Source: Candidatus Uhrbacteria bacterium
Lineage (GTDB): Bacteria; Patescibacteriota; Patescibacteriia; UBA9934; GWF2-40-263
Assembly: GCA_016844925.1 (NCBI GenBank)
Contig: JAERTI010000038.1
Coordinates: 2,936 to 66,935 of the forward strand
DNA: 64,000 nucleotides
Reading direction: 5' to 3'
Part shown: positions 350-63,372 of the stretch, piece after piece
Layout: each line of letters opens with the position of its first letter
How positions within the stretch are numbered: position 1 is the first letter of the stretch
Notes under the pieces: generated by a model
The model's input: only the letters and a program-made list of their open reading frames with translations
The model's database searches: none
Told to the model about the DNA's origin: nothing
Made by a program: the position numbers and the translations under genes

Positions 350-394
350 TAACCCTCACAGCCCACGAGGACCTCGTGAACTCTGAGGGTCAGG
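350..394. repeat. 45-nt imperfect palindrome, AACCCTC...GAGGGTT family, copy A (taaccctcacagcccacgagg a cctcgtg aa ctctgagggtcagg)
   Basis: Nested inverted repeat: ccctcacag/ctctgaggg and cacgagg/cctcgtg. 42 of 45 nt match copy B at 860-904. Confidence 0.8.
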
Positions 395-426
395 TCCGGC
401 GCAAGCGCTGGCCGGACCCAGGGGAG

Positions 427-774
427 CTAGGAGCTGACAACCCTGAGGTTGGGCTCGCCAGAATGGTCACTCATGGGGATGCCGCCGTCTCCGTCGGGAT
501 CCGTGATGGTGATCGTCTCCTTCTTGCTGTGGTAGAACTCGCCATCGAAGGGGAGGGCGTAGGCCTTGATCAGCTCCTTGTGGTCGGGGTTGTTCCCCGA
601 CAGGCGCGTGAACGCAGCCGTGAGGCCGGTCACGATCAGCCCGATGCTCAGGAATTCTCCCAGCAGGCTGTTGACCTGCGTCAGGAGGATCGCTCCGATG
701 ATGGCCATGAGGATCATGGTGGGCTTGATCAAGACGTTGATCTCGACTTCGCTCTCGGTGGTCGTCTCGGTCAT
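427..774 (-). CDS. small membrane protein (about 115 aa, acidic N-terminus plus two hydrophobic helices), hypothetical
   Basis: ORF-track frame 427..792. The ATG at 772-774 (reverse strand) has GGAG 5 nt upstream. Hydrophobic segments PTMILMAIIGAILLTQV and LSIGLIVTGLTAAF. Flanked by repeat copies A and B. Confidence 0.6.
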   Translation of the reverse strand: MTETTTESEVEINVLIKPTMILMAIIGAILLTQVNSLLGEFLSIGLIVTGLTAAFTRLSGNNPDHKELIKAYALPFDGEFYHSKKETITITDPDGDGGIPMSDHSGEPNLRVVSS

Positions 775-859
775 GTTCTCTCCGCCTCTCATTCAGGTAC
801 CGTCCTGAATTACTTGAACTCCCTTGCGGGCGCGAGGAGGATTGGTTGCGGGTTGGTGT

Positions 860-904
860 TAACCCTCACAGCCCACGAGGGACTCGTGGACTCTGAGGGT
901 CAGG
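860..904. repeat. 45-nt imperfect palindrome, AACCCTC...GAGGGTT family, copy B
   Basis: taaccctcacagcccacgagggactcgtggactctgagggtcagg. Direct-repeat partner of 350-394, 510 bp away. Confidence 0.8.
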
Positions 905-982
905 CTGCGCACGTCGTTTACGTTTGCAGCCAGCGTTCGCCAGGGAGGACCCTGGGTACTTGAGGTCTGTCTAGGTGCAGCG

Positions 983-1303
983 TCAACGATGAATCTTGCC
1001 GAGTTCCATGAACGCGAGGTCCATCTCTCCCGGATATTCCGGCCTGGTGACGACGATGCAGACGATCAGGAAGGCAGGGTCCCACGTATATCCGATGGCG
1101 CGGTCGTTCATCGGGTCGATGTTCCAGGAGCAGATATCGATGTCGTTCATCTTGACGGTGAACTGCTTGTTGTCCATCCAGCTGATCTCGAAGGTCTTCC
1201 CGTCGAGAGTCTTCGTCGTCTGCTGGCCCAGCTCGATGCTGAACTCTTCTTCCTCGAAGGAGTCGATGTGTCCATCGATCCGGATGGCGAGCTTGCTGGT
1301 CAT
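983..1303 (-). CDS. hypothetical protein (106 aa), high GC
   Basis: Complete ORF with strong GC3 bias. No recognisable motif. Confidence 0.55.
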   Translation of the reverse strand: MTSKLAIRIDGHIDSFEEEEFSIELGQQTTKTLDGKTFEISWMDNKQFTVKMNDIDICSWNIDPMNDRAIGYTWDPAFLIVCIVVTRPEYPGEMDLAFMELGKIHR

Positions 1304-1380
1304 GGTCGTTCTCTGGTGCCGAGTCTTCCTCGGCGTGCTCTCGCTGTCTTTACGCAGCGACGTCCCAGTGGGACACGAGC

Positions 1381-1417
1381 GGTTGGTGGTAGGTGCTAAC
1401 CCTCACGACCCGTCAGG
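1381..1417. repeat. partial or degenerate copy C of the AACCCTC palindrome family (ggttggtggtaggtgctaaccctcacgacccgtcagg)
   Basis: Shares the ggttggtg..taaccctcac 5' part and the gtcagg 3' end with copies A and B; the central part appears deleted. Confidence 0.5.
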
Positions 1418-1765
1418 CCACCTGTAATGTGTAACGACTGAGATTCTCCGAGGAGAGAGTCATTGAGTCGCCAAGTGTCGGTGTGCTCTGACGGGACATG
1501 AGGGTTGCCCGACGTGTGTCAGGCCGGTTGAAGACAAAGCCAGCGGGGGAGAACGCTGGCCGTGGCCCCAGAATAGATTGTCGAACTGTTTCGACCATCA
1601 CAGGGCAGAAGTGACTTCTGCACTCTGATGGTTACCCGTCGCAGCTTCAGAAGCTTTGACGGGCGGCCGGGCCGACACAGGTTCGGGAAGCATTCCCTAG
1701 CTGTGCCGGTCCGGCCCGTGTACCCCTACACCCATCCCACGGTCCCCAACCGCGGCGTCAGCTGT

Positions 1766-2527
1766 CTAGCTGGCGGCGGCCTCGGGGGCCTGCTCGTCCG
1801 CGTCGGTGGCCACGATGGGCTCCTCGGCGTCCGGGACGGGGGTGGCGGCGGCGTCGGCCTGCGCCTGCGCCTCCTTCTTGGCGGCGCGGTCGGCCTTGTC
1901 CTCGCCCATGGCGGCCTCGAACTGCTCCAGGAACTTCGCGCGGGGCTCGGCCGGGATGGTGTTCTCGGCGAGCCAGCGGAAGAGGCGCAGGTTGCGCCGG
2001 ACCAGCCGGGGCAGGTCCTTCTGGTGCAGCTCGCCCTTGCGGGGGGCGTTGAAGCCCGGGACCATCCAGCTGAGCAGGACCTCGGTCGCCTTGGGGCCCA
2101 GGCGCATGGGGCGGCCGGGGTTGCGGCCGCGCAGGAGCAGGGTGTCGGCGTCCTCCTTGCTGACGTCCTCGGCCCGGGCGTTCTGGCGGTCCTCGCGGTT
2201 GGCGTCCTTGAGCTCCTTGCAGAAGCCCTTGAACTGCTGGTCGCGCACCTTGGGGTTGCGGATGCGCTGGGCCAGCTCGACCTTCTTGGTCATCACGCCC
2301 ACCTCCATCATGCCGATGGCGGTGTGGACGCTGCCGGTCGCGAAGGTGAACAGCTCGCCGTACTGCTCGTCGTTGAGGCCGAACCAGTCCGCGTAGGTCG
2401 AGACGGCGATGCCGAGCTCGTTCTGCGTGGGCGGGAGCGGCCGACGGGTCTGCTGCGGGCGCTTGCCCTTGGGGTTCTTGGGGACGCTGCGGCGGGTCGG
2501 GACGGCGATGCGGTTGTCGGTGGTCAT
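1766..2527 (-). CDS. hypothetical protein (253 aa), basic N-terminus, Ala/Glu/Pro-rich C-terminus
   Basis: Complete ORF with AAGGAG 7 nt upstream of the ATG at 2527 (reverse strand). The long antisense ORFs on the + strand were rejected. Confidence 0.6.
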   Translation of the reverse strand: MTTDNRIAVPTRRSVPKNPKGKRPQQTRRPLPPTQNELGIAVSTYADWFGLNDEQYGELFTFATGSVHTAIGMMEVGVMTKKVELAQRIRNPKVRDQQFKGFCKELKDANREDRQNARAEDVSKEDADTLLLRGRNPGRPMRLGPKATEVLLSWMVPGFNAPRKGELHQKDLPRLVRRNLRLFRWLAENTIPAEPRAKFLEQFEAAMGEDKADRAAKKEAQAQADAAATPVPDAEEPIVATDADEQAPEAAAS

Positions 2528-2769
2528 GGTCAGTCTCCTTCAAGACGTCTTTCTAGATGTTCGTCACACGGACTGGGCTGCGGATGCAGCTCAGGACCTT
2601 CCGTGTCATCTAGATACCTGCGGCTGGCAGGTGAGTGGTGTAGAACATGGGATGAGTCAACTCGCCGACGATAGGCGAGTGTAGGTAGAAGATGTATCCC
2701 TCACGAAGGATCAGCGTGTGATCTTCCGTGAGGGATCCTCGACGCGAGCGGTGCGTCGAGGGCTCCTGA

Positions 2770-2904: not shown

Positions 2905-3132
2905 GGGTGCCTCCTGGTTGATTCCCTAGAAGGTCACAAGTAGAACTTATGAACTTGTAGGGATGGACGACGCAGTTCTCGCGTTGAGTGTGAACTACGT
3001 CGCCCCGTCCTGGTGCCTTCTCGGCATGGAGGCTCTGCTTCCTCTAGGCTCACCAGTACGTAGGTGACAACGTGCACGTTTTATGAAGCTAGACTTGCTT
3101 CAACCCACTGTCATGGGATCTGGTTGTTGGTC

Positions 3133-4551
3133 CTACCGCAGGGGCAGGCCCAGGCTCCGACGCAGGTCGTTGGCCGTCTCCATCTTGGGGGCCTCCTCCT
3201 GCCGGCGCATCTCCCGCTGCTTCCACGCCAGGTGGTTCTTCTGGCGCTGCTGACCCTGGTGGACCAGGCGGCCGATCTGGCGGAGCGGCACCGTGTGCAG
3301 CAGGTTCTTGGCCTCGGCCTCCCACACGGGGATGGCCTTGTCCTTGAGCTCCTGCACGGTGGTGCGGTGGGTGCCGGCGGCGTCGTGGAGGCTCGTCCAC
3401 TCCAGCTCCGTCTTCTGCCGCTTGCTGTACAGCTCGCGGAAGGTCCGGGCGTCGGCGGCGCTGAGCTGCACCACGAAGCGGGTCGACCGGTGGCCGTCGC
3501 GGATGATGGGGTTGGTGCCGCCGAGGCTGGTCTCCCAGCGCTCGAGCTGCTCCATCATCCGGTCGCGGGTCTCCGTGAAGGAGAAGGACCGCATCCGCTT
3601 GTTGTGGTGACCCTTGATCCGGACGACCTTGTGCAGGTGCCAGACCTCCACGTGCTTGCTGTCCAGGGCCCGCTTGATGTCGGCGAACCCGGGGACGCGA
3701 GCGGAGGTCTCGAGGACCCGCTGACCGCAGCCGCAGCTGCAGATCAGCGCCAGGCCGTGCGGGGTCTCCACGCGGCCGAGCCAGTCGGCGCCGGCGGGGC
3801 GGGTGGCCGTGACAGCGGCCGGGTTGTTGGCGCGATCCGCGCGCCGGCGGCGGGGCGGGATGCCCTTGGTCGGCTTGCGGGCGGCCTCGACCTTGGCCTG
3901 GAGCTCGCCCGCCTCGTCGAAGAGGCGGTCGAAGCCGTAGTCGGCGGGGTTCTCACCCAGCTCGATGACGGCGTCCACGGCGGTCTTGATGACCCCGATG
4001 ACCTCCGGCCCGGACTCGGCGACCTTGGAGGCGCTCAGGCCGTGCACCTTCACCAGCTCGTGGCTGGCGAACGCGAGCACGAGCTCGTGCGCCTCGACGA
4101 CGGACTCGACGGCCTGGGGCGAGCGGCAGGTCTGGCCGTTGACGACGACGTGGAAGTCGCTCGCCTCGTGCCAGCTGTCGTCGTACTCGGGCTCCTCGAA
4201 GTCGGTCTCCAGCTCCACGGGGGCGCTGTCGAACTCGAGCTCGCTGTCCTCGTCGTCGAAGTCGACCCAGTCCTGGTCGTCCTCGTCGCCGGAGTCCATC
4301 TCGCCCTCGCTCGACCAGTCCCGCGCCATCATGGAGGTGATGAAGTCCTCGGTGATGGTCTCGGCGGTGGCGAAGTTCGAGCCGTAGTGGCTCAGCCGCG
4401 CCCGCTCCTGGGCCATGTCGTCCGAGCTCACCAGGCCGAGGTTCTCCAGCGCCATGTCGTCCCAGTCCGGCGAGTTGGCGTCTCCGATGATGGGGAGGCC
4501 GTACTCGTCGAGGTGGAGCTCGCGGGCGCTCTCGGTGCTCAGGTTCAGCAT
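3133..4551 (-). CDS. hypothetical protein (472 aa) with a very acidic N-terminal half and a CSCGCG cysteine cluster
   Basis: Complete ORF. GAGAGGA precedes the ATG at 4551 (reverse strand). DE-rich segment DSGDEDDQDWVDFDDEDSELEFD, then ICSCGCGQRV, then a basic C-terminus. Confidence 0.6.
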   Translation of the reverse strand: MLNLSTESARELHLDEYGLPIIGDANSPDWDDMALENLGLVSSDDMAQERARLSHYGSNFATAETITEDFITSMMARDWSSEGEMDSGDEDDQDWVDFDDEDSELEFDSAPVELETDFEEPEYDDSWHEASDFHVVVNGQTCRSPQAVESVVEAHELVLAFASHELVKVHGLSASKVAESGPEVIGVIKTAVDAVIELGENPADYGFDRLFDEAGELQAKVEAARKPTKGIPPRRRRADRANNPAAVTATRPAGADWLGRVETPHGLALICSCGCGQRVLETSARVPGFADIKRALDSKHVEVWHLHKVVRIKGHHNKRMRSFSFTETRDRMMEQLERWETSLGGTNPIIRDGHRSTRFVVQLSAADARTFRELYSKRQKTELEWTSLHDAAGTHRTTVQELKDKAIPVWEAEAKNLLHTVPLRQIGRLVHQGQQRQKNHLAWKQREMRRQEEAPKMETANDLRRSLGLPLR

Positions 4552-4859
4552 GTGTCAGTCCTCTCGACGTCTCGCGACGTCAGTGCAGTGCGCCCACCCG
4601 CTGGTGAGCAGGGGGTGGGGAAGGTTTCCGCTTGCTCTCGCTTGCGGAAGTCAGGGGGGTAGGGGTTGTGATGTGCTCGTTTCTCGGAAGACGTTGCACA
4701 GTCGCTTGAGAGGTGACTCTCAGTCGGCTGTGCAGCATCTTCGTCCTGCAGAGGGACTCAAGCATGGATGAGTCTCTCTGGTGGACGGACGAGAGCAGCG
4801 GCGTAGCGGCTCTCGTCAAGTTGTGCCCTCGAGGTGTCCATGCTCGAGAGTCCCGTCGC

Positions 4860-5033
4860 CTACCCCAGGAAGGGGATGGCGAGGGCGAGCACGGGGACGC
4901 CGGCGACGATCGCGAGTCCGCCGACGTCGACGCGGAAGGCGGCGGCGCGGGCGATGGTCTCGGTGTCGTCGGTGCTGTAGTTGGGGTTGACGACGCAGCG
5001 GGCGAAGGCGAGGGCGGTGCGGATGGCGTTCAT
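4860..5033 (-). CDS. small hydrophobic protein (57 aa: MNAIRTALAFARCVVNPNYSTDDTETIARAAAFRVDVGGLAIVAGVPVLALAIPFLG)
   Basis: Not in the ORF track (<60 aa). ATG at 5031-5033 (reverse strand) preceded by AGGAG. GC3 bias. Hydrophobic C-terminus. Last gene of the left high-GC block. Confidence 0.45.
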   Translation of the reverse strand: MNAIRTALAFARCVVNPNYSTDDTETIARAAAFRVDVGGLAIVAGVPVLALAIPFLG

Positions 5034-5768
5034 GTCGATCTCCTGGGTGTGGTCTGTCGCGGGTGCGACTCTGGTCGGAGGGTTCAGTTCCGATGCAGGA
5101 ATTCGGAGAAGATGATCTCAGTGACCGGCTAGAGCCAGGTGTGGGATCCAGGTCATCTAGATATGGGTCAAGTAAGCCGGGGCCTAGTTGATCCATTTGA
5201 TGATCTGTACTCTCTCCTCCGTATTTCTGCACCGGAGCATCTCGACAACTTGCTGGAGGTAGGGGTGAGGCAGTGATCTAGCCAAGGCTCGATATGCTTC
5301 GTGATCGCAGGTTGTGTGGATTGAGTCAGTTAGACCGAGTCAATCCGCTTAGCGATCCACGCCAGGCTTCCCTTGTTAGGGTCGAACTGGACGTGTGACT
5401 CTCTCCTCCAACAAGTTGGCGGGATAAAAGAAAACCGGTTGCTATGCGCATCTTCTGTGGAGATACGTACAACAACCGGCTCTAGATCACTTAAGATCTA
5501 GTCCTTCTGCTCGAGCTAGGCTCGATGTACTCTCTCCCCAGAGAATATTTAGTTGTAGTGTTCGAGAAGCTCTCTCTTTCTTCTCAACCTTGTGCATGCA
5601 TACTATCACTTTTTGTCAGATATGTCAAGACTAGATAGGGGCTATGTATCAATATCTTGACTAAATTTAGTAAAATAGAGCTGTCTAGATTCTGTTAACA
5701 TAGGTGAACATTGTGCGGTACTTTTAATCACAGGTGCGATATCGGGAGTCTGATATAATAAAAGAGCT

Positions 5769-6719
5769 ATGAATGCTTTTTCTTCCGTCATGGGCCACGA
5801 CAGGGCCATTACTTTGCTTTCAAAGATGCTCGAGCACGGCACAATCCCACACGCTTTTCTTTTTGTGGGCGCTCGGGGTCTTGGGAGGACTACGGTAGCC
5901 AAGGCATTAATAGGAGAGCTACTAGGACAACAGGTCTCAATGGATCTCCATCCAGACGTGCACACCCTCCAGGTGCTTAGCGACGAGAAAACGGGGAAAC
6001 TCAAAAAGAACATCTCCGTGGAGCAGGTGCGCGAGCTTAACGGGCGCATTGCCATGACATCATTGTCAGGCTCTTGGAAGATTGTTTGGATCGAAGAAGC
6101 AGAGAAGCTCTCTATGGGGGCAGCAAACGCCTTGCTCAAGACGCTTGAGGAACCAAAAGGCCAGACACTCTTTATTCTTCGAGCACCAGAAGTTGATCAG
6201 CTCCCGGCAACCGTTGTGTCTCGTTGTCAAACAGTACGATTCTCAACCGTTGCCCGTCAGGATATTGTTGATGGACTTGTGCGACTGGGATTTGCCCCAT
6301 CGGATGCAAGCCGCGCTGCTGCCAGGAGCATGGGGCGTCCAGGGCTCGCTCTGAGGTACTTAAAGGATACGGCGTATCGCTCGCTGAACGAGACTGGGGT
6401 GGCACAGGCACAGGCCTTTCTTTCTGCGGGCTTGCCAGAGCGTCTTGCACAGGTTCTGGAGATGATCCCCAAGGCAGAGGTCAACAAGATGGGGCGGCTA
6501 AGTGAAGTGGTTGATCAGCTGCAGCTCGTTTGCCGAGATCGACTTCTAGATTCCGTTGGTTGCTCTTCACTTTGTGTGACCGAAGAAACGTCAGGTCTAA
6601 AAGGACTCACACAAGCTGATGTGATTGTTGTATTGGATCGACTCGCACAAGTTCGCTCTGCTATTTCACAAAATATCAATCCTCATTTGGCACTAGAGCA
6701 TGTGGCTCTTAGTGCATAA
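5769..6719 (+). CDS. holB: DNA polymerase III delta-prime subunit
   Basis: AAA+ clamp-loader layout: HAFLFVGARGLGRTT Walker A region, then an ATVVSRCQ sensor motif. Extended -10 TGATATAAT at 5744-5752. Confidence 0.8.
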   Translation: MNAFSSVMGHDRAITLLSKMLEHGTIPHAFLFVGARGLGRTTVAKALIGELLGQQVSMDLHPDVHTLQVLSDEKTGKLKKNISVEQVRELNGRIAMTSLSGSWKIVWIEEAEKLSMGAANALLKTLEEPKGQTLFILRAPEVDQLPATVVSRCQTVRFSTVARQDIVDGLVRLGFAPSDASRAAARSMGRPGLALRYLKDTAYRSLNETGVAQAQAFLSAGLPERLAQVLEMIPKAEVNKMGRLSEVVDQLQLVCRDRLLDSVGCSSLCVTEETSGLKGLTQADVIVVLDRLAQVRSAISQNINPHLALEHVALSA

Positions 6720-6729
6720 ACAACATTTT

Positions 6730-7779
6730 ATGAAACGTCTTTCCATCATTGCTCTTTCCTTGGTCCTGCTGGGTGCGGGATGTCTTGGGGGCTCTAGCGG
6801 CAGCACCGGTACGGATGCTGGTGTATTTAAAAGCATTAACGCTGGTGAAGAGTGGGCGCAGCACGTTATTGTGCCAACCGCACAAGGTATCGGCACACTG
6901 GCCACCACCAACATTTTGCACATGGCCATGGATCCGCAAGATAACAATTTTCTTTACATAGCTACTCGTGGCAACGGAATGCTCTACAGTGAAGATGCAG
7001 GTGCATCTTGGCGACAGGTGAGAGATAAGGAGTTGCAGAGCGGTACGATCTCGCATGTGGCCATTGATAGTAAGGATGTTTGTACGGTGTATGTCGCCAC
7101 GGGCTCTCGTCTATTCAGGACAGATGATTGCATGCGCAGCTTTGATTCTGAGACGTATGTCGATAACCGCGGGGAGACGATTACACGCGTTGCTGTGGAT
7201 TGGTATGATAATGACAACGTCTGGATTGGGATGAGTAACGGAGATGTGCTTAAGAGTGAAGATGCCGGAAACACATGGAGAACAGTGCTTAATACAGGTC
7301 AAACGGTAGTGGCATTCTTGATGTCTAACACAGATTCTCGCCAGGTGATGGTTGCAACAGGACGAAAAGGAATCTGGAAGACAACGGATGCCGGAAGTAA
7401 CTGGTCTTCATTAGAAGAGGGACTTGATGAGTATAACGACGGAGATAATGTGTATTCACTTGTGCAGTCCGCCGATTCCGGAGTGGTCATTGCTGCCACA
7501 GAGTACGGACTACTGCGCTCACGAGATTTTGGAGAGAGCTGGGAGGCCGTTGAGCTTGTGACATCGCCAGGGCAGGTGGAGATTCGAGCTGTTGCTGTGA
7601 ACGAAAGAAATCCAGACCTGATCTACTACGCTGCTAACGCCACCTATTACTATTCTCAAGATGGTGGTTCCACATGGCTGACAGAGCGCTTGGCAACGAC
7701 GCGTACACCAACCGTGCTCTTGGTTGACCCAGAGGACTCAGCGGTGTTATATGTCGCCGTAGCTAATCTAGAAGATTAA
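6730..7779 (+). CDS. BNR/Asp-box repeat lipoprotein (Ycf48/sialidase-like beta-propeller)
   Basis: Lipoprotein signal MKRLSIIALSLVLLGAGC. Repeated SxDxGxTW boxes: SEDAGASW, SEDAGNTW, TTDAGSNW, SRDFGESW, SQDGGSTW. Confidence 0.7.
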   Translation: MKRLSIIALSLVLLGAGCLGGSSGSTGTDAGVFKSINAGEEWAQHVIVPTAQGIGTLATTNILHMAMDPQDNNFLYIATRGNGMLYSEDAGASWRQVRDKELQSGTISHVAIDSKDVCTVYVATGSRLFRTDDCMRSFDSETYVDNRGETITRVAVDWYDNDNVWIGMSNGDVLKSEDAGNTWRTVLNTGQTVVAFLMSNTDSRQVMVATGRKGIWKTTDAGSNWSSLEEGLDEYNDGDNVYSLVQSADSGVVIAATEYGLLRSRDFGESWEAVELVTSPGQVEIRAVAVNERNPDLIYYAANATYYYSQDGGSTWLTERLATTRTPTVLLVDPEDSAVLYVAVANLED

Positions 7780-7801: not shown

Positions 7802-8356
7802 ATGCATCCAATCCTTTCACAGAAACGTCCAGACTATCAGTCAGCTGTTGATCATTTGCACAAGGAGTTAGGGGCTCTTCGCACAGGTCGAGCAACACCG
7901 GCGCTCGTTGAGGATATTCCCGTTAGTGCCTATGACTCCATTATGGAGATTAAGGGTCTGGCTTCGATTCAATCGCAGGATGCTAAGACACTCGTCATTG
8001 ACCCGTGGGACAAGGGGCTTACAAGAAACATTGAGAAGGGGATTCGCGATGCAGGCGTTGGCTTGAGTCCTGTTGTTGATGGGGAGGTGATTCGTATTGT
8101 CATGCCACCAATGACCGAGGAGAATCGCGCGCAGATGGTGAAGAAGATGAAGGAGTTTCTTGAGGAGGCAAAGATTCGTATTCGCGGCGTGCGAGAGGAT
8201 GGGCGTGACCAGGTGAACAAGATGGAAAAAGAGAAGGAGATTAGTGAAGATGAGAAGTACAAGCTGTTTGATGAGTTCGATAAGATGACGAAGGAGTTCA
8301 CCAATGAGGTGGATCAGATTGGAAAAACAAAGGAAGAAGAAATAATGACGGTGTAG
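7802..8356 (+). CDS. frr: ribosome recycling factor
   Basis: 184 aa. The overall sequence fits RRF ([20 protein letters not shown]...). Confidence 0.85.
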
Positions 8357-60225: not shown

Positions 60226-60325
60226 TCGCTCATCTCCTTCGTGGGGAGTCTAGGAGAAGTTGTGGGTGAGGTCAATGCGTCATGGGCCTAGTGTTGGGGT
60301 TTAGAAATAGGTACCATGCAGACAT

Positions 60326-61135
60326 ATGGCGATTAGTAGAATGCGTAGCACACTTGGAAAAACAACGCTTGGTGCGTTGGGGGTTGTTTGGTTGGGAGTT
60401 CAACCTCCTGAGGCAAAACCACTCACGCTTGAGGGGGAGGAGCAGATGGCACAGGTTTTGAATGAACTTGATGATTTAACGAGTGTCGCTAGAGAGGCTC
60501 TCGACATGATGGACGAGGGGGTGTTTGAGCGCGCCCAAGGATCGTTTGGTTCTAAGGAACAAGTTGGGAGGTTGCTCAAGAATACACCTGGGGCGTTTAA
60601 GAATATGCTTAAGGCCGGTTCGGTAAGAACAATGGATGCCTCATATATGGCTGGGAAAACACGTAGCGCTCTAGCATCCGGAGTGCTCACACCTTGGGAG
60701 AGTGATGATGTGGTGGTGATCCCTTGGGATGAAGAAAAGAAAAAGATTATTGTGCAGGGCGGAGATTCTCTTCCAGCCGTGCTTGCCCATGAGTACACAC
60801 ATTTTATCGTTGGCCCGCATTCGTTCTCCTATCTTGTCGACGTCCATGAAGATACAGAACGAACGTCCGCAGAGTGGACTGCTCTAGCTCGTGAGCATGG
60901 AGATGTTCCATACCTTGTCGGTGACTTGCTTTGGTTGTTGGATGAATGGAGCGAGAATCGTCGTGATAACGAGGGAGATCTGACCTATCTAGATATGGCA
61001 GAGGTTTTTGGAATTGATCATGAGGAGGCCGAAGTGCTTGCCGAGCGGATCCAGGAATTGTCTCGCGAGCGCGATCAGGAGCGCCTTGCTGAGGTGCGAC
61101 GGAGTGAGGGGGCATCGAGACTATCAAGAAAATAA
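60326..61135 (+). CDS. hypothetical protein with an HExxH motif (LAHEYTHF)
   Basis: Backbone GC. Third protein in the window with an LxHExxH(T/F) motif. Confidence 0.5.
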   Translation: MAISRMRSTLGKTTLGALGVVWLGVQPPEAKPLTLEGEEQMAQVLNELDDLTSVAREALDMMDEGVFERAQGSFGSKEQVGRLLKNTPGAFKNMLKAGSVRTMDASYMAGKTRSALASGVLTPWESDDVVVIPWDEEKKKIIVQGGDSLPAVLAHEYTHFIVGPHSFSYLVDVHEDTERTSAEWTALAREHGDVPYLVGDLLWLLDEWSENRRDNEGDLTYLDMAEVFGIDHEEAEVLAERIQELSRERDQERLAEVRRSEGASRLSRK

Positions 61136-62428: not shown

Positions 62429-62812
62429 CTAGCGGACACTGGACTCGTCCAGCAAGATGGGCTCGATAGCCAGGCAGACGCGGAGTCGGTCTGCCCCCTT
62501 GGGGTTCTCCAGCTGAGCGAAGTGCTGTGTCTCGACGATGGCGTTGTCGAGTTCGATGACCAGCTGGGGGGTGCCGTGCTGGTAGATCTGGTCCGTGAGA
62601 TCCTCGAGGTACTCCAGGTGCATCTGCGCGCCGTTGTCCGGGTCTTCGAAGAAGATCTGGCCACAGCGATGGAGGAACATCTTGGCGTTCTCGGACGCTG
62701 GGATGATCACCTTGTCTGCAGGTGGCGACGCAGCGTGTTGCGGGGAGTGTGATTCCAGCAGGAGGAACAAGCACAGGGGCAGCAGGTAAAGGAACGAGGG
62801 GAAGGGGCGCAT
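62429..62812 (-). CDS. small secreted protein (127 aa); high GC
   Basis: Signal peptide MRPFPSFLYLLPLCLFLLL. GAGAAAGG before the ATG at 62812 (reverse strand). Confidence 0.55.
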   Translation of the reverse strand: MRPFPSFLYLLPLCLFLLLESHSPQHAASPPADKVIIPASENAKMFLHRCGQIFFEDPDNGAQMHLEYLEDLTDQIYQHGTPQLVIELDNAIVETQHFAQLENPKGADRLRVCLAIEPILLDESSVR

Positions 62813-62891: not shown

Positions 62892-62936
62892 AACCCTCGC
62901 GACACAGGGACGAGAGAGTCCTTCTGTGCGAGGGTT
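62892..62936. repeat. hairpin aaccctcgc-N27-gcgagggtt, related to the AACCCTC...GAGGGTT palindromes at 350/860; likely terminator of the 141-aa gene
   Basis: 9-bp perfect stem. Lies between the stop of 62947..63372 and the TTGACA box of the next gene. Confidence 0.6.
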
Positions 62937-62946
62937 TCGCGTGTGC

Positions 62947-63372
62947 CTAGGCTCGGACGAGTCCGAGCTGGATCATCTCACCGAGGCTGATGCCCCGGCG
63001 GCGGGTGTGCGCGGTGTGCGCGTCCCACTTTCCGGTCACCCAGAGGGTGCCCAGCCGCACGTACTCGGGGACGTAGACGCCCTCGGGCTTGAACGTGGTG
63101 TGCTTGGCCGGGATCTGGTACATCGGCCCCTTCCAGCTGCGGTAGTCATTGACGTACACCGTGTAGCCGGCGGCGTGCAGGCCAGCCATGAAGCTGATCA
63201 CGCAGCAGTGGCGCGGGAGAACCACGCCGGTGCCCATGAAGTACTCCAGCTGCGGGTCGATCCGCACCTTGGGCTTGCCGTACCGGTTCACCATGATGGT
63301 GCGCTCGCTCCACGGGCGTCCGCCGCGGATGATGGTGACGTCCTTGCGGTTGGTCTTGTTGGTCTTGCTCAT
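62947..63372 (-). CDS. hypothetical basic protein (141 aa); high GC
   Basis: AAGAGG before the ATG at 63372 (reverse strand). About 100-nt high-GC 5'UTR. No domain recognised. Confidence 0.5.
   Translation of the reverse strand: MSKTNKTNRKDVTIIRGGRPWSERTIMVNRYGKPKVRIDPQLEYFMGTGVVLPRHCCVISFMAGLHAAGYTVYVNDYRSWKGPMYQIPAKHTTFKPEGVYVPEYVRLGTLWVTGKWDAHTAHTRRRGISLGEMIQLGLVRA

Follow-up and report, generated by a model that had tools for sequence, protein, structure and literature searches.

The RNase III processing sites of the phage T7 early operon, reportedly described by Dunn and Studier, are related imperfect hairpins of about 20 bp that lie between cistrons, carry an internal unpaired feature and have neither a promoter nor a U-tract. 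The operon itself is read from a single promoter and holds many small accessory genes, and after cleavage the hairpin stabilises the upstream message.

In T4-like phages, the promoter-early stem-loops (PeSLs) are repeated intergenic modules that stand on either side of small ORFans in hyperplastic regions (Arbiol et al. 2010, PMC2839356; Comeau et al. 2014, PMC4122927). The core of an attC site is the R''/R' pair RYYYAAC...GTTRRRY, in which AAC/GTT, at the inner end of the R box, is universally conserved; folding is more favourable for the bottom (antisense) strand, which has more G:T pairs (PMC5027507). One end of a REP element bears an unpaired tag, GTAG or CGTC (PMC3733652).

The window analysed here is a 64-kb stretch of a bacterial chromosome; with about 3 kb of flank, about 67 kb of the source genome was examined in all. 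Its AACCCTC...GAGGGTT palindromes are copies of one conserved intercistronic stem-loop family, which we call hairpin-1. We file hairpin-1 as an intercistronic palindromic/regulatory-cassette element and not as a member of the attC, REP, PeSL or T7 RNase III sites. There is, in our judgement, about an even chance that these hairpins act as intercistronic RNA punctuation and serve at the same time as homology for recombination.

Copies and fold of hairpin-1

A covariance model built from the copies found six sites in the window, all in two operons (Table 1). It found none in the 56 kb between the two islands that hold these operons (5.2-61 kb) and none in the window's remaining high-GC islands. 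Every copy sits between same-strand ORFs, in a single orientation relative to the genes. An exact search with the pattern of the c1/c2 subfamily gave 0 matches in GTDB representative genomes and IMG/VR.

Copies c1 and c2, two palindromes of 45 nt, are identical at 42 of 45 positions, lie 510 bp apart from start to start and bracket a small gene, as an earlier sequence-only reading had stated; the gene is on the minus strand. The same reading had proposed a family of related nested palindromes, which stands, but its list was incomplete: c4 and c5 had been missed, and what had been listed as a truncated third copy (1381-1417) forms the left arm of the 109-nt hairpin c3. The arms of c3 (1398-1421 and 1483-1506) are 83% complementary, and its loop carries a 14-nt indel between strains. 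The relative that had been noticed at the far end of the window, c6, is a genuine member by its covariance-model score and is 100% conserved in L005. The outer stem of c4 (ACCATCACAG...CTCTGATGGT) shows a compensatory C>A / G>T change, and the arms of c5 can also be given as ATCCCTCAC...GTGAGGGAT.

Table 1. Features of the two hairpin-bearing islands in window coordinates.
Feature	Coordinates	Strand	Remarks
Hairpin-1 c1	350..394, core 352-390	(-)	Sense strand UGACCCUCAGAGUUCACGAGG-UCC-UCGUGGGCUGUGAGGGUUA; -31 kcal/mol sense, z -5.1; 55.7 bits
Hairpin-2 at c1	393..418	(-)	GGUCCGGCC...GCCGGACC; abuts c1 on sense 5' side
115-aa ORFan	427..774	(-)	Body of 510-bp cassette; GC3 0.89
Hairpin-1 c2	860..904, core 862-900	(-)	-34.1 kcal/mol, z -7.2; 61 bits
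Hairpin-2 at c2	903..931	(-)	GGCUGC...GCAGCC
106-aa ORFan	983..1303	(-)	Replaced by 109-aa ORF in sister strain
Hairpin-1 c3	1398..1506	(-)	109 nt, 61-nt branched terminal structure; -60 kcal/mol, z -7.4
Hairpin-1 c4	1594..1632	(-)	ACCAUCAGAG...CUGUGAUGGU; 55.2 bits; hairpin-2 at 1635-1663
p253	1766..2527	(-)	Conserved core protein of island 1; GC3 0.99
Hairpin-1 c5	2696..2736	(-)	AUCCCUCACGG...UUCGUGAGGGAU; 55.1 bits; hairpin-2 at 2737-2761
p472	3133..4551	(-)	Second conserved core protein; GC3 0.98
Island 1 operon start	5420..5628	(-)	Sigma-70-like promoter, then structured leader with intrinsic terminator
Hairpin-1 c6	62892..62936	(-)	Between p141 (62947-63372) and p127 (62429-62812), island 2; 42.9 bits

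Folding bore out the palindromes, c1 and c2 each forming a stable 19-pair hairpin (z -5 to -7). The sense-strand consensus of hairpin-1 reads R-S-CCCU-M-AGAG / inner stem / CUG-Y-K-AGGG-Y. An outer stem of 7-9 bp, CCCU(C/A)A / U(G/U)AGGG, is found in every genome examined. It is followed by a conserved internal mismatch, 1x1 G.G (or 2x2), whose always-unpaired G.G is flanked by conserved A-U and G-C pairs. The inner stem has about 10 bp, and the terminal loop ranges from 3 nt to about 85 nt; the terminal loops are indel hot spots between strains.

Covariation was assessed on an alignment of 16 distinct hairpin copies from six or more genomes. Paired cells made up 85.8% of the alignment, versus 36-41% when the partner columns were slid, and none of 500 shuffled controls reached the observed score. 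Since 13 of the 19 pairs have compensatory or double changes while the G.G mismatch is kept, the covariation supports the fold.

A second hairpin, hairpin-2, which is GC-rich and variable in sequence, ends 0-2 nt before hairpin-1 in 17 of 18 cases, so the unit is a double hairpin placed after an ORF. A near-identical copy of the hairpin-2 of c1 lies at 2550-2575 of the Logan contig L001, where it precedes the last hairpin of the array.

Strand asymmetry was considered as a test of RNA versus DNA and rejected. The sense strands of c1 and c2 fold better by 9-10 kcal/mol, and the asymmetry is clear in the window's own related copies. Over 18 hairpins of the wider family it is gone (sense better in 8, antisense in 7; Wilcoxon p = 0.21), and it therefore cannot decide between the two.

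Operon context of the hairpins

The window is chromosome of about 50% GC, with holB, RRF, an aminoacyl-tRNA synthetase, TIM, four tRNAs and SOD among its identified host genes, interrupted by high-GC islands. Both hairpin-bearing islands are minus-strand operons, each with one sigma-70-like promoter and one canonical terminator. The promoter of island 1 (5628->5600, TTGACA-17-TAGTAT with a TG extension) is divergent from holB, and the leader behind it ends in an intrinsic terminator (5482->5430 plus UUUUCUUUU); promoter and leader are conserved in L007, one of the distant relatives treated below. ORFs of 57, 472, 253, 106, 115, 116 and 91 aa follow the leader in this order, and a classical U-tailed terminator closes the operon just past the left edge of the window, as seen in L001, which is identical. 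Island 2, likewise GC3-rich, is laid out in the same way (promoter 63631->63603, terminator 61161->61140). The GC3 of island genes is 0.80-0.99, versus about 0.5 in host genes.

A promoter scan of island 1 returned 5628->5600 as the sole promoter-like site in 5.7 kb, with none 3' of the hairpins, and no consistent ECF-type or other promoter motif was seen after the hairpins, by scan or by eye. A U-tract scan found no U-tailed site at any hairpin-1 copy; C/A-rich sequence follows the stems. Rfam matched neither the hairpins nor the leader. Long-range pairing of GGAGAGAGU in the leader with ACUCUCUCC in the 3' end and loops was also considered and set aside, the motifs pairing mostly locally in GAGAG/CUCUC stems.

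We infer an RNA function from the position of the hairpins in operons with a single promoter and a single terminator, from their fixed orientation, from the covariation and from a sequence constraint across species that exceeds the needs of a bare stem. The proposed role of the double hairpin is to punctuate a long polycistronic transcript, through endonucleolytic processing, protection of the 3'/5' ends of the flanking cistrons or attenuation, and the conserved outer stem with its G.G mismatch is probably recognised by a conserved factor. In architecture, hairpin-1 is like the T7 RNase III sites: it lies between cistrons, and its imperfect duplex of about 19 bp is interrupted by an internal mismatch. 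It differs from them in being a double hairpin and in an outer stem more conserved in sequence than RNase III would require.

It is unlikely that hairpin-1 is simply a factor-independent transcription terminator or attenuator, of a high-GC type without a U-tract. Stable GC-rich stems directly after stop codons would suit such a role, and PeSL stem-loops without classical tails terminate efficiently, but at hairpin-1 the missing U-tract comes together with the lack of any promoter 3' of the hairpins from which transcription of the downstream ORFs could restart. The same operons, moreover, end in textbook U-tailed terminators, and a terminator does not need an outer stem and a G.G mismatch conserved in sequence across species.

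Island proteins

The island proteins gave no match in Pfam, PHROG or PADLOC and have essentially no homologues (ORFans). Neither a nuclease nor an RNA-binding domain was identified among them. Gene callers mis-annotate these islands, calling antisense shadow ORFs.

The gene between c1 and c2 had been taken for a small membrane-protein gene, and this agrees with its 115-aa product, which is hydrophobic from about residue 10 to residue 55 (Kyte-Doolittle maximum 2.2), a probable membrane segment. The protein has no homologue in 5.8 billion proteins. For p253, about 15 distant homologues were found among 1.84 billion representative proteins, and a confident structure model is all-helical with no known fold; the protein has a disordered, arginine/lysine-rich basic N-terminus and an acidic C-terminal tail. 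For p472, an invariant motif was found, P..D..GR..T..GLA..C.C.C. A phage or plasmid origin was tried and rejected, as p472 and p253 had no tblastn match in INPHARED, nor p253 in PLSDB.

We hold it improbable that p253, p472, the double-hairpin site and the array of slots for fast-turnover ORFans together make up an undescribed, self-contained, lineage-wide system. In such a system the two proteins might recognise the outer stem and its G.G mismatch, and either the transcript would be processed or protected, or the cassettes would be recombined; in the latter case the system would be an integron-like platform that lacks a tyrosine recombinase. The system, or its recombination (e.g. GC-biased gene conversion), would hold GC3 at about 0.99 in a genome of 50% GC.

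Cassette turnover between strains

The behaviour of the cassettes was followed by comparing two strains, that of the window and a sister strain (strain B) that is about 90% identical and was recovered as the same sequence in three independent assemblies (L002, L003 and L004). Strain B lacks exactly the 510-bp unit, made up of one hairpin and the 115-aa gene together with its 5' untranslated flank and its 3' flank, and the junction falls at the hairpin. The cassette-like arrangement of repeat, ORF and repeat proposed from the sequence was borne out in its behaviour. The single hairpin that remains in strain B has the sequence of c2 followed by the downstream flank of c1, which places the crossover in the last 19-20 shared bases.

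Two further exchanges were seen. An unrelated 109-aa ORF takes the place of the 106-aa ORF in strain B, between the same 5' and 3' untranslated flanks; homology ends about 5 nt upstream of the start codon and picks up again immediately past the stop codon. A hairpin with a 114-aa ORF in strain B stands where the window strain has a translationally coupled 91-aa ORF. The repeat-ORF-repeat unit therefore behaves as a cassette, and genes are gained, lost and swapped between the stem-loops. Most breakpoints lie in conserved flanks or at ORF ends and not at one point of the hairpin: four of the six are at ORF ends, not in hairpin-1, which makes the hairpin only part of the recombining homology. Between the two strains the intergenic segments are 95.7-99% identical, versus 82-96% for the coding sequences. 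Synonymous divergence in the island is about 2- to 16-fold below that of the neighbouring host genes, and dN/dS is near 1.

In the reading of the hairpins as RNA punctuation that doubles as recombination homology, the strain comparison demonstrates the recombination consequence. Direct repetition of the module provides homology for slippage or homologous recombination, at which cassettes are deleted, duplicated, replaced and reordered. The PeSL modules are alike in that they bound the insertions, deletions and replacements by which close relatives are told apart, and in that they take in the untranslated flank down to the Shine-Dalgarno sequence. They differ in three respects. The PeSL module includes an early promoter of sigma-70 consensus, whereas the hairpin-1 module has none; hairpin-1 belongs to a bacterial chromosome and not to a phage, and its locus is shared between species; and the hairpin-1 module is a double hairpin whose outer stem is conserved in sequence.

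The strain comparison also bears on whether the hairpins could be structure-specific DNA recombination sites, functionally like attC and served by an unrecognised recombinase, possibly p472 or p253. One cassette indel is indeed bounded by two direct hairpin-1 copies, with its junction at the ...GAGGGTT end, and gene order is shuffled between species. Like attC sites, the hairpins are imperfect, stand 3' of promoterless cassettes and form an array of one orientation behind one upstream promoter. Their conserved outer stem, unpaired internal mismatch, inner stem and variable tip recall the R box, spacer, L box and variable terminal structure of attC (PMC5027507). Two conserved proteins of unassigned fold and function always accompany the hairpins, and the GC skew of the window suggests that the antisense strand would be the lagging-strand template.

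Such a role is nevertheless quite improbable. The attC-like character suggested by the sequence-only reading did not hold up: hairpin-1 measures 39-45 nt as against 57-141 nt for attC, its arrays have no IntI, no bottom-strand folding advantage and no one-sided extrahelical bases in the predicted folds, and no RYYYAAC...GTTRRRY pair occurs within 40-150 nt in either island. AAC/GTT is present in only some copies of hairpin-1 and there at the outer, not the inner, end of the stem. Scans of the island proteins gave no domain of a tyrosine or serine recombinase, and neither these proteins nor ten ORFs scanned from the other regions of the window yielded any recombinase, integrases included. Breakpoints at ORF ends inside conserved UTRs are unexplained by a site-specific hairpin crossover, and the 19-20 nt of identity at the junction suffice for slippage or homologous recombination.

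Hairpin and locus in distant relatives

Homologues of p253 with usable context (L007 and L009) occupy the same locus, holB...TrmB-GT4 where both flanks are present. The host proteins of these relatives are 52-75% identical to those of the window and p253 about 33-35%. Those islands that were profiled for composition are still high-GC, and the same hairpin stands directly after the island ORFs. The genes for p253 and p472 come in opposite orders in different species.

An exact 37-40-nt hairpin pattern retrieved six metagenome contigs, whose readable flanks (TrmB/GT4; holB in one) and p253/p472 homologues match the holB...TrmB locus, with no second locus among the retrieved contigs. The cross-species pattern gave 0 matches in IMG/VR. 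A holB search of genome contigs returned only a 30% identical match in Bdellovibrionota, which is uninformative.

As the hairpin pattern is kept while p253 is about 33-35% identical, the hairpin is better conserved than the proteins. The presence of the same island and hairpin at the same holB...TrmB site makes them old and positionally inherited, and it argues against a recent import from a donor genome. The idea that the high-GC segments come from one donor genome is thus not supported, and hairpin-1 is missing from the remaining high-GC islands.

The REP, BIME and REPIN elements offer a further comparison, being palindromes of 20-40 nt after ORFs, often paired, probably transcribed and linked to mRNA stability or termination (PMC3733652, PMC3116915). 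Hairpin-1, an imperfect palindrome of about 40 nt after ORFs between unidirectional genes, with a second hairpin whose pairing recalls REP dimers (PMC3733652), could be seen as a selfish or structural extragenic palindrome of this kind, spread by a RAYT-type transposase or by gene conversion and having generic effects only, but this is very improbable: the six copies in 64 kb are not dispersed but confined to two GC-rich operons, with none in the other 56 kb; the GTAG/CGTC tag is absent from the flanks of 18 copies; no RAYT was seen within the window and its flank of about 3 kb; and the copies, unlike those of a proliferating repeat, keep orthologous positions and a conserved sequence in species that have diverged deeply. 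The REP-like nature that had been proposed for the palindromes was not supported.

Implications

If the hairpins are RNA punctuation that also serves as recombination homology, a bacterial chromosome would use phage-style regulatory cassettes to maintain a small array of slots, where unrelated ORFans replace one another within an unchanging RNA scaffold. Cassette turnover would then have a third route, next to integrons and phage PeSLs. The islands also pose a puzzle that is kept across deeply diverged species, with non-coding sequence better conserved than protein, GC3 of 0.98-0.99, low synonymous divergence and dN/dS of about 1. The hairpin model provides a specific marker with which such islands can be located.

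An operon leader and the motif it shares with the hairpins

A multi-hairpin leader of about 175 nt (z -5.6) lies directly downstream of the promoter of the first-island operon and is closed by an intrinsic terminator (see table). The leader is kept in L007, a distant relative carrying the same locus, where its counterpart spans about 6460-6795. No family was matched when the leader was compared with Rfam. Its possible identities are an attenuator, a riboswitch-like leader and a small RNA. The motif GAGAGAGT(A/C) has five exact matches in the 64-kb window, all of them inside the two hairpin islands, and CUCUCUCC, which is complementary to it, was also found after the last hairpin in several species.

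Features of the window and their coordinates
Feature	Position	Strand	Remark
Leader	5420-5594	minus	multi-hairpin
Intrinsic terminator	5482->5430 plus UUUUCUUUU	minus	ends leader
GAGAGAGT(A/C)	5528-5536, 5397-5405, 5208-5216	minus	each at head of repeated GGAGGAGAGAGUA unit, roughly 1-kb leader
GAGAGAGT(A/C)	1453-1461, 62912-62920	plus	present as complement in loops of hairpins c3 and c6
p253	1766-2527	minus	GC3 0.99
p472	3133-4551	minus	GC3 0.98
57-aa ORF	4860-5033	minus	GC3 0.97
p141	62947-63372	minus	GC3 0.94
Shadow ORFs	4-963, 989-1399, 3064-4662 (L001 2946-3905, 3931-4341, 6006-7604)	plus	public gene calls
Further high-GC, high-GC3 islands	15.7-17.6, 22.1-25, 28.9-30.5, 35-36, 37.1-37.8, 46.3-49 kb		no hairpin-1 copy

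A 10-mer, TAACCCTCAC, was seen on the plus strand at 349-358, 859-868 and 1396-1405. It equals the part of the phage T3 RNA polymerase promoter consensus that sets specificity. Since the three sites are antisense to genes and no phage-type polymerase was found near them, the likeness is probably a coincidence.

Junctions and strain differences

The 57-aa ORF and p472 are separated by another hairpin (4687-4742), with 26-bp arms and of a sequence family different from hairpin-1, the conserved intercistronic stem-loop. This 26-bp-arm hairpin is kept in the sister strain (L002, 7719-7774), and the intergenic region around it is 99% identical between the strains. Beyond the left edge of the window, on the identical Logan contig L001, the 116-aa gene ends within the first codon of the 91-aa membrane ORF: stop and start share the sequence TGATG at 2853-2855 (window about -87 to -89). 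No other junction in the array lacks a hairpin module.

Two presence/absence differences were noted. The 855-bp segment at 60276-61131 is missing from the matching position (7860-7862) of L005, a related contig in which hairpin c6 is conserved. It corresponds to a 269-aa ORF (60326-61135) that at its upstream end extends a few bases past the segment. The sister strain carries, between TrmB and the GT4 glycosyltransferase (L002, 14085-14447), a gene of the bAvd / 23S_rRNA_IVP family that is absent from the window strain (L001, 1128-1153). Members of this family are accessories of diversity-generating retroelements.

Composition and divergence of the island genes

A covariance model scan of the window found no hairpin-1 copies in the further high-GC islands. 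Ordinary domains are encoded in some of these islands: cyclase-like, CobW, FHA and NAD-dependent epimerase. The mosaic in base composition thus spans the genome and does not depend on the hairpins.

The four tabulated island genes have an extreme GC3 of 0.94-0.99, against about 0.5 in host genes, and the public gene calls on L001 are antisense "shadow" ORFs of such GC3-rich genes. Between the two strains, dN/dS is about 1.07 for p472, with a dS of just 0.15, and about 0.93 for p253, with a dS of just 0.047, whereas host genes in the same comparison gave dS of 0.31-0.76 and dN/dS of 0.01-0.03. The synonymous sites of p472 and p253 are under constraint far above that of host genes, and the proteins they encode are fast-evolving.
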